Source: Escherichia coli (GTDB lineage: Bacteria > Pseudomonadota > Gammaproteobacteria > Enterobacterales > Enterobacteriaceae). Taken from it: a stretch of DNA of 64,000 nucleotides. The DNA is taken from the NCBI RefSeq assembly GCF_016903815.1, contig NZ_CP069973.1. One strand, written 5' to 3'. This document shows, piece after piece, positions 22,504 through 24,186 of the stretch. A program made the translations under genes and the position numbers. Numbering within the stretch: the stretch's first letter is position 1; every line of letters starts with the position of its first letter. Below the pieces are notes generated by a model that saw only the letters and a program-made list of their open reading frames with translations, did no database searches and had not been told where the DNA came from.

Positions 22504-22759
22504 AAATCTTTGGCTGTGTATTCAGTCTGGTAATCATCCAAGGAAAGCTCATCAGAAGGGTGATGACTCCAATTAGTAGAACATATATTTTCGATAAAAG
22601 CACCGATGACTTTTTCATGAAGTTCTACAGAACGCGAGAAACAGATGGTTCTGCGGGCCAGACGTTTGATTCGGGTTCTCAGGGGCAGATTGTTACGCTC
22701 AATGGGTGATGCTGCCAACTTACTGATTTAGTGTATGATGGTGTTTTTGAGGTGCTCCA

Positions 22760-23035
22760 GTGGCTTCTGTTTCTATCAGCTGTCCCTCCTGTTCAGCTAC
22801 TGACGGGGTGGTGCGTAACGGCAAAAGCACCGCCGGACATCAGCGCTATCTCTGCTCTCACTGCCGTAAAACATGGCAACTGCAGTTCACTTACACCGCT
22901 TCTCAACCCGGTACGCACCAGAAAATCATTGATATGGCCATGAATGGCGTTGGATGCCGGGCAACCGCCCGCATTATGGGCGTTGGCCTCAACACGATTT
23001 TCCGCCATTTAAAAAACTCAGGCCGCAGTCGGTAA
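22760..23035 (+). CDS. insA: IS1 protein InsA
   Basis: 91-aa [46 protein letters not shown]...; recognised as IS1 InsA. Confidence 0.92.
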
Positions 23036-23457
23036 CCTCGCGCATACAGCCGGGCAGTGACGTCATCGTCTGCGCGGAAATGGACGAACAGTGGGGATAC
23101 GTCGGGGCTAAATCGCGCCAGCGCTGGCTGTTTTACGCGTATGACAGGCTCCGGAAGACGGTTGTTGCGCACGTATTCGGTGAACGCACTATGGCGACGC
23201 TGGGGCGTCTTATGAGCCTGCTGTCACCCTTTGACGTGGTGATATGGATGACGGATGGCTGGCCGCTGTATGAATCCCGCCTGAAGGGAAAGCTGCACGT
23301 AATCAGCAAGCGATATACGCAGCGAATTGAGCGGCATAACCTGAATCTGAGGCAGCACCTGGCACGGCTGGGACGGAAGTCGCTGTCGTTCTCAAAATCG
23401 GTGGAGCTGCATGACAAAGTCATCGGGCATTATCTGAACATAAAACACTATCAATAA
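22954..23457 (+). CDS. insB: IS1 InsB reading frame (expressed as an InsAB' transposase by -1 frameshifting)
   Basis: 167-aa ORF ...[131 protein letters not shown]; overlaps insA in the -1 frame as expected. Confidence 0.88.
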
Positions 23458-23557
23458 GTTGGAGTCATTACCCGCTCAATGTGCTGAGTAAAAATCTTAC
23501 CAGTCAGATGCTTCTCCTTTGGTAACTCTCTAGCGTAACTACCCCATTCGTCAGTGG

Positions 23558-23743
23558 TCAACATGCCGATGGTAAAAGGGTAAGCAGCGCCAGCAGTTCA
23601 CGACAGGTTTCATCAGTCCGGGGGCCAAAAGTGTAGGCCAGAACACCACCAGTTTTCGTGTTGTACACGTACCAGAGCCAGTGCTGTCGCGCTTTACTGC
23701 CGACAAAGCTCCATTGCTGACTAAGTTCGCAGATGAGTGCCAC
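23558..23743 (-). pseudogene. InsB-like N-terminal fragment of the disrupted IS1-family element
   Basis: 61-aa ORF ...ELSQQWSFVGSKARQHWLWYVYNTKTGGVLAYTFGPRTDETCRELLALLTLLP aligns by eye with InsB ([49 protein letters not shown]). The rest of the InsB-like frame (..IERNNLPLRTRIKRLARRTICFSRSVELHEKVIGAF..) is on the other side of the nested IS1 at about 22590-22700. Confidence 0.6.
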
Positions 23744-23769
23744 ATCAGCATGAGCGACCGGGGATGACG

Positions 23770-24042
23770 TTATTTTTCGTGGCGAGAGTTTTTTAAAGTT
23801 CGGATGACTGTATTAATGCCAATTTTCAGCGTACGGGCAGTATAGCGAACCCCGGCACCGTTGAAAGCCATTTCAGCGATTTGGTCTTTAACTCCTGGTT
23901 TACGGGGCTCGTAACAGTAACTGAGCTGAAATACCCGGTGACAGTCACGGCCGCGGAATCGATCATGTCTTTTGGGGTTCTGCCCGTGACGGTAAACCTG
24001 AACGGACTGGCAACGGGGACAATGAAGGTTAACTGTGACCAT
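23770..24042 (-). CDS. InsA-like protein of the divergent IS1-family element
   Basis: 90-aa ORF MVTVNLHCPRCQSVQVYRHGQNPKRHDRFRGRDCHRVFQLSY...NGAGVRYTARTLKIGINTVIRTLKNS; same Cys-x2-Cys zinc-finger plus helix-turn-helix layout as IS1 InsA but clearly divergent. Confidence 0.7.
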   Translation of the reverse strand: MVTVNLHCPRCQSVQVYRHGQNPKRHDRFRGRDCHRVFQLSYCYEPRKPGVKDQIAEMAFNGAGVRYTARTLKIGINTVIRTLKNSRHEK

Positions 24043-24186
24043 GAAACAACCTTAAAAGCGAGTATTATATCCTTAATTCAACTAATTGGAGGCATCACCG
24101 TTTACCGGAGCGACAGCTTGCGGAAAGGTCGTGCAACTACAAAGCAACAAACAGACTACGGCGGGAATTATTTTTTTTATCATCCA

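Follow-up and report, generated by a model that had tools for sequence, protein, structure and literature searches.

Nested insertion of an IS1 into a divergent IS1H element at the RhsF locus of Escherichia coli

In the 64,000-nucleotide stretch of Escherichia coli DNA analysed here (contig NZ_CP069973.1 of assembly GCF_016903815.1; hereafter the window), an intact IS1 lies within a second, IS1-like sequence at the right-hand side of the RhsF locus. This arrangement raises the question of how the one element came to lie inside the other, and in what state the outer element was when that happened. As detailed below, a canonical IS1 almost certainly transposed into an older, divergent IS1-family element, making a 9-bp target duplication. 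The nested insertion is real, ordinary and fully explained by known IS1 biology.

Anatomy and identity of the two elements

The inner element has the following features:

22705..23472, plus strand, inner IS1, 768 bp, intact, with IRL (left inverted repeat) at 22705-22727 and IRR (right inverted repeat) at 23450-23472
22760..23035, plus strand, insA of the inner IS1, 91 aa, matching NF033558 and NF050000
22954..23457, plus strand, insB' frame of the inner IS1, a 167-aa ORF matching NF033558 with 143.8 bits (cutoff 100)
23011..23017, plus strand, A6C (AAAAAAC) programmed −1 frameshift motif of the inner IS1

The element starts with GGTGATGCTGCCAACTTACTGAT, ends with ATCAATAAGTTGGAGTCATTACC and is exactly 768 bp long; the original prediction, which had placed an intact IS1 of this length at 22705-23472, was right to the base. 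Its length of about 768 bp, its imperfect terminal inverted repeats of about 23 bp, its insA and insB' joined by the A6C motif (all three intact) and its match to the transposase profile are those of the IS1 family, as are an 8-9 bp target duplication and an identifiable empty site. The InsA protein matches the NCBIfam model NF033558 (transpos_IS1) with E=1.8e-25 and the zinc-binding domain model NF050000 above its cutoff. The architecture of IS1 and the role of the A6C motif have been described previously (PMC12903888). Compared with IS1A of K-12 the inner element has 7 nucleotide differences (99.1% identity), whereas many copies annotated as intact under the name 'IS1-like element IS1B family transposase' match it at 100% identity. 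Because these identical copies are annotated as intact, the inner IS1 is apparently transposition-competent. A 100% identical IS1, likewise intact and annotated with a protein accession and a programmed frameshift, is carried by the resistance plasmid p7_2.1 of E. coli strain 7/2, where it adjoins the mer operon and pemIK. With the IS1B/IS1R isoform known from R100-type plasmids the inner element shares its length, its inverted repeats, insA and insB' with the A6C motif and the 9-bp duplication, and it differs from that isoform in location only.

When the inner IS1 and one copy of the 9-bp sequence CGCTCAATG are taken out, positions 22559-22704 join 23482-24099 to give a 764-bp IS1-family element lying in the orientation opposite to that of the inner IS1:

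22559..22704, minus strand, right-end fragment of the outer element (IS1H), with IRR at 22559-22581 and the 3' end of insB'
23482..24099, minus strand, left fragment of the outer IS1H, with IRL at 24077-24099, insA, A6C and the 5' part of insB'
23770..24042, minus strand, InsA-like zinc-finger ORF of IS1H
23788..23794, minus strand, A6C motif of IS1H, in the same relative position as in IS1

The terminal repeats that had been proposed at 22559 and 24099 are present as 26-nt arms that are 88% complementary to one another, and the outer 14 bp match the right end of IS1 at 13 of 14 positions. Also found were the InsA-like ORF that had been placed on the minus strand (23770-24042) and the InsB-like coding sequence said to be split at the insertion point, which the inner IS1 indeed cuts in two. 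The flanking sequence had been taken to be IS1-like on both sides; alignment with the inner IS1 showed that the two elements are collinear at 56% DNA identity, with 33 of 91 residues identical in InsA and 65 of 157 in InsB'.

The rebuilt element is 100% identical over all 764 bp to a copy in strain 7/2 which PGAP (NCBI's annotation pipeline) labels 'IS1-like element IS1H family transposase, frameshifted', and near-identity to this labelled copy, together with the IS1-type ends, the InsA-like ORF and the A6C motif, assigns it to the IS1H isoform; an uninterrupted transposase frame, as expected of an intact member of the isoform, is lacking. Thus the RhsF-linked copy has the same IS1-like ends, InsA-like zinc-finger ORF, A6C position and 764-bp length as the IS1H of ISfinder but, with 1 nt deleted, is a pseudogene; it is also not flanked by a duplication of its own target and is split by IS1. 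In the E. coli W genome one copy is listed as 'IS1H insXY' (PMC3032704). The K-12 IS1 copy at flhD has also been named IS1H (PMC4444293), and we rejected the equation of the outer element with that copy; the outer element is the divergent ISfinder isoform. For annotators the locus is a reminder that the three 'IS1 family transposase' fragments found here belong to two elements and that one of these has long been dead. The insB' frame of IS1H (22473-22718, minus strand) has no stop inside the element and reads through the right end into flanking DNA, in contrast to the insB' of IS1, which stops inside the element.

Copies of IS1H that are at least 95% identical occur in about 2,170 records, and roughly 2,200-2,450 of the 5,426 complete E. 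coli genomes carry IS1H at the RhsF (rpmE-yiiX) locus, where it is a fixed relic.

Target duplication, empty site and prior decay of IS1H

Two copies of the duplicated target border the inner IS1:

22696..22704, left copy of the target-site duplication, 9 bp, CGCTCAATG, single-copy in empty-site genomes
23473..23481, right copy of the target-site duplication, 9 bp, CGCTCAATG

The identical 9-mer that had been reported on both sides of the IS1 (cgctcaatg) was confirmed on re-inspection at exactly these positions. In the whole 64-kb window CGCTCAATG occurs on the plus strand only twice, at the two edges of the IS1, and the chance of a 9-bp match on both sides of a predefined element is 4^-9, or about 4e-6. 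Comparison with related genomes that lack the nested copy, the check that had been suggested, revealed the empty site. The chromosome of strain 7/2 is 100% identical to window positions 23473-31100 (over 7,627 bp) and 99.8% identical to positions 15559-22704, and these two alignments overlap by exactly one CGCTCAATG, with IS1H uninterrupted. No fewer than 20 other complete genomes likewise match the window at 100% on both sides of the insertion, with an uninterrupted IS1H and a single CGCTCAATG; the same empty site is found in strain 20KM2222 and in L014, an E. coli-like contig binned into a metagenome-assembled genome (MAG). That genomes matching both flanks at 100% have an empty site with a single CGCTCAATG argues for a simple and recent transposition, and the reading of a canonical IS1 inside an older, divergent relative stands. 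We found no evidence contradicting this account. With target duplication and empty site both available, the locus is a clean textbook case, even if insertion sequences landing in one another are common and such an event is of little importance in itself.

The exact IS1/IS1H junction of the window occurs in none of 5,426 complete RefSeq E. coli genomes, and a scan of the GTDB species representatives for it gave no match; it is known from one assembly only, the present one. This absence suggests that the insertion is recent and restricted to one lineage, and it makes the junction usable as a lineage marker, for which we propose the k-mer TTACGCTCAATGGGTGATGCTGCC as a tag for carriers of the nested insertion. 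Only this particular insertion is new among complete genomes, both elements and the locus having already been catalogued.

A junction found in no other complete genome, formed by a multicopy element that often breaks assemblies, invites the suspicion that IS1 reads from elsewhere were misplaced into IS1H. However, a misjoin would not leave full-length IS1 ends between perfect 9-bp repeats of a sequence that the empty site contains only once, and comparable nested IS1 insertions are present in independent finished genomes. We therefore regard an assembly artefact as very unlikely. Less likely still is an origin by homologous recombination, or by gene conversion, among copies of the IS1 family in place of transposition. 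The two elements do belong to one family and are collinear, and the target lies at a homologous IER-coding motif, but at the DNA level they are just 56% identical and share no long identical tracts, they lie in opposite orientations, and the inner element is full-length, both ends included, and has a 9-bp direct repeat around it. The misassembly and recombination readings were thus both rejected on the anatomy of the locus.

While transposition of IS1 into IS1H explains the structure, a further claim of the original prediction, that the insertion inactivated the transposase of the outer element, does not hold, since uninterrupted IS1H copies already carry a frameshift in insB':

23578..23580, minus strand, 1-nt frame-shifting deletion in IS1H insB' (ACCC in the window, ACACCC in an intact relative)

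At this site the window reads CTGCTTACCCTTTTACC, as against CTGCTTACACCCTTCAAC in the intact relative, a sequence about 79% identical on plasmid pMRY16-002_1 (L013). Strains 7/2 and 20KM2222 have this 1-nt deletion in their uninterrupted IS1H, as do strains 042 and NIPH17_0020 in their copies, and it is common to every RhsF-linked copy inspected (L001, L002, L004, L005). Consistent with this, uninterrupted IS1H copies, among them those of strain 7/2 and O157:H7, are labelled frameshifted pseudogenes by PGAP. Since the deletion is present in uninterrupted copies, the IS1 split a gene that was already inactive when the IS1 landed. In addition, insB' of the RhsF-linked IS1H encodes ELSQQW (23700-23720, minus strand) where IS1 has EMDEQW and the intact relative ELDEQW; on top of the frameshift, a residue of the catalytic motif may therefore have been lost.

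We propose that a functional IS1 of the IS1B/IS1R type, such as is carried by R100-like resistance plasmids, transposed into the fossil IS1H. Catalysis would have been by InsAB', the DDE (Asp-Asp-Glu catalytic motif) transposase expected from −1 frameshifting at the A6C motif, and the donor was plausibly a plasmid copy. The 100% identity of both flanks to empty-site genomes suggests that the event was recent, and insertion into DNA that was already dead would have been selectively neutral. The rhs operon, transcribed rightwards, and yiiX, transcribed leftwards, also converge on the site, and a neutral effect is to be expected of an insertion into dead DNA at such a place.

Other IS1 insertions at RhsF and in IS1H-like elements

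The window is not alone in having an IS1 in this IS1H. E. coli 042, like about 190 further genomes, has an IS1F in the same RhsF-linked IS1H, in the same orientation and 49 bp away, with the target duplication GTTCTGCG (L002, 6659-8198), and strain NIPH17_0020 has a decayed version of this 042-type insertion. The 042 and window insertions share their host element, their relative orientation and a short target duplication, but the IS1F is a different isoform (about 90% identical) at a different site and has an internal stop; it is an independent, older event. On pAST81_1, a pAA-type plasmid of enteroaggregative E. coli (EAEC), an IS1A lies in an IS1H-like relative of about 78% identity between aap and aatP (L003, 2980-4512), 2-3 bp from the site used in the window and with the duplication (C)TCAATGCG. 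A plasmid survey revealed another IS1A in an IS1H-like element of an ETEC CS6 plasmid (L010, 1523-3056), at a different position, approximately 666.

Taken together, the 042-lineage IS1F, in the same element and orientation only 49 bp away, and the pAST81_1 IS1A, 2-3 bp from the window's site, could mean that IS1 preferentially targets the conserved stretch encoding IERxN in IS1H-type elements and that nesting reflects target choice rather than chance. We consider this improbable. The pAST81_1 insertion was found by a junction query and is therefore ascertainment-biased, and the IS1 of the ETEC plasmid lies elsewhere in its IS1H-like element. In contrast, position-independent searches (whole-locus queries in both orientations) revealed at least six independent IS1 insertions in the stretch comprising the rhs C-terminal toxin domain (rhs-CT) and dsORF-f3 (21608-22541), against two in IS1H. 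Their window-equivalent positions are 21608, 21726, 21736, 21944, ~22002 and ~22541, and they come from different E. coli lineages (L001, L015-L019). The rhs-CT/dsORF-f3 stretch has a GC content of 31%, compared with 48% for IS1H, and IS1 prefers AT-rich targets. Moreover, dead insertion-sequence DNA tolerates insertions, so that survival bias is enough to produce the pattern. A hot spot in IS1H was accordingly set aside as unsupported: the AT-rich rhs-CT/dsORF-f3 stretch has received most of the IS1 insertions, and in one of the plasmids the IS1 lies elsewhere in the element; the distribution of IS1 fits a preference for AT-rich DNA combined with the tolerance of dead DNA for insertions.

Slightly less probable again is a pair of more specific proposals taken jointly, namely that the IERxN segment is a sequence-specific target of IS1, or that InsAB' acting in trans moves the 1.54-kb IS1H::IS1 composite by means of the IS1H ends. 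Trans action on immobile IS1 copies has been reported (PMC12903888). No second copy of the IS1H::IS1 composite was seen.

Some of the IS1 insertions in the rhs-CT/dsORF-f3 stretch are accompanied by an upstream deletion or rearrangement, as in TUM1880 and in MY1-8, where the IS1 joins frvR to IS1H.

IS1H and the right border of the RhsF island

Two features on either side of IS1H bear on its place in the island:

22180..22503, plus strand, RhsF dsORF-f3, the presumed immunity gene (context), 55 bp upstream of IS1H
24100..24180, minus strand, remnant of a TIGR02117-family gene, its first 27 codons, cut off exactly at the left end of IS1H

RhsF is Rhs locus 11, between priA and yiiX (Jackson et al. 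2009, PMC2935791), and corresponds to rhsW7 of E. coli W, for which no C-terminal tips are listed at the locus (PMC3032704). The RhsF flanks are present in 2,467 genomes, and annotated genomes invariably show the order rpmE - rhs core - dsORF-f3 - IS1H - yiiX. Compared with the annotated RhsF element the window has this same order and differs by the extra IS1 only. The 55-bp gap that had been noted after the putative immunity gene is correct, the stop of dsORF-f3 being at 22503 and the outer element starting at 22559.

Two kinds of genome without the island were compared with the window. In K-12, which lacks both the RhsF island and the TIGR02117-family gene, homology stops at 17900 and restarts at 24186. 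In ECN24 it stops at 17893 and restarts exactly at 24100, the base after the left end of IS1H, and genomes of the ECN24 type have an intact 624-bp TIGR02117-family gene directly downstream of yiiX. Since its left end abuts codon 27 of the truncated gene, IS1H marks the right border of the island, and as read from these alignments it forms the exact right terminus of an RhsF island spanning 17894-24099. The sequences on either side of IS1H, CATCAGAAG and GTTTACCGG, show no target duplication, and a loss of about 550 bp from the chromosome goes with the element. The lack of a duplication and the abutting truncated gene together imply a deletion or junction event, and the data are consistent with an IS1H-adjacent deletion, or an IS1H-mediated junction, on the chromosomal side when the island was fixed. 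Neither the border deletion nor the truncation involved the inner IS1. It had also been suggested that the insertion-sequence block may have removed or separated further orphan Rhs modules; the data gave no evidence for this, and the deletion seen is associated with IS1H and lies on the chromosomal side. The combination of an IS1H border and a truncated chromosomal gene may be of interest for the study of how Rhs islands are acquired.

The association of IS1H with the island is close. An artificial flank-to-flank query found no genome in which the RhsF flanks are joined without IS1H, and neither a flank query nor a 21-nt scan of the GTDB representatives found a genome with dsORF-f3 and without IS1H. 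The 21-nt scan gave a single match, on an E. coli-like MAG contig that also carries IS1H. L014 (SFGN01000258.1), a 2.2-kb contig assigned to a 'Lachnospiraceae' MAG, shares 97% identity with the RhsF-IS1H-yiiX region of E. coli and probably entered that bin as a contaminant.

Finally, all 14 differences between strain 7/2 and the window over 7.1 kb cluster at 18065-18277 and 20312-20508, within the rhs core gene, with no difference in the flanks. These two clusters look like the result of gene conversion between rhs paralogues or of assembly noise in repeats.
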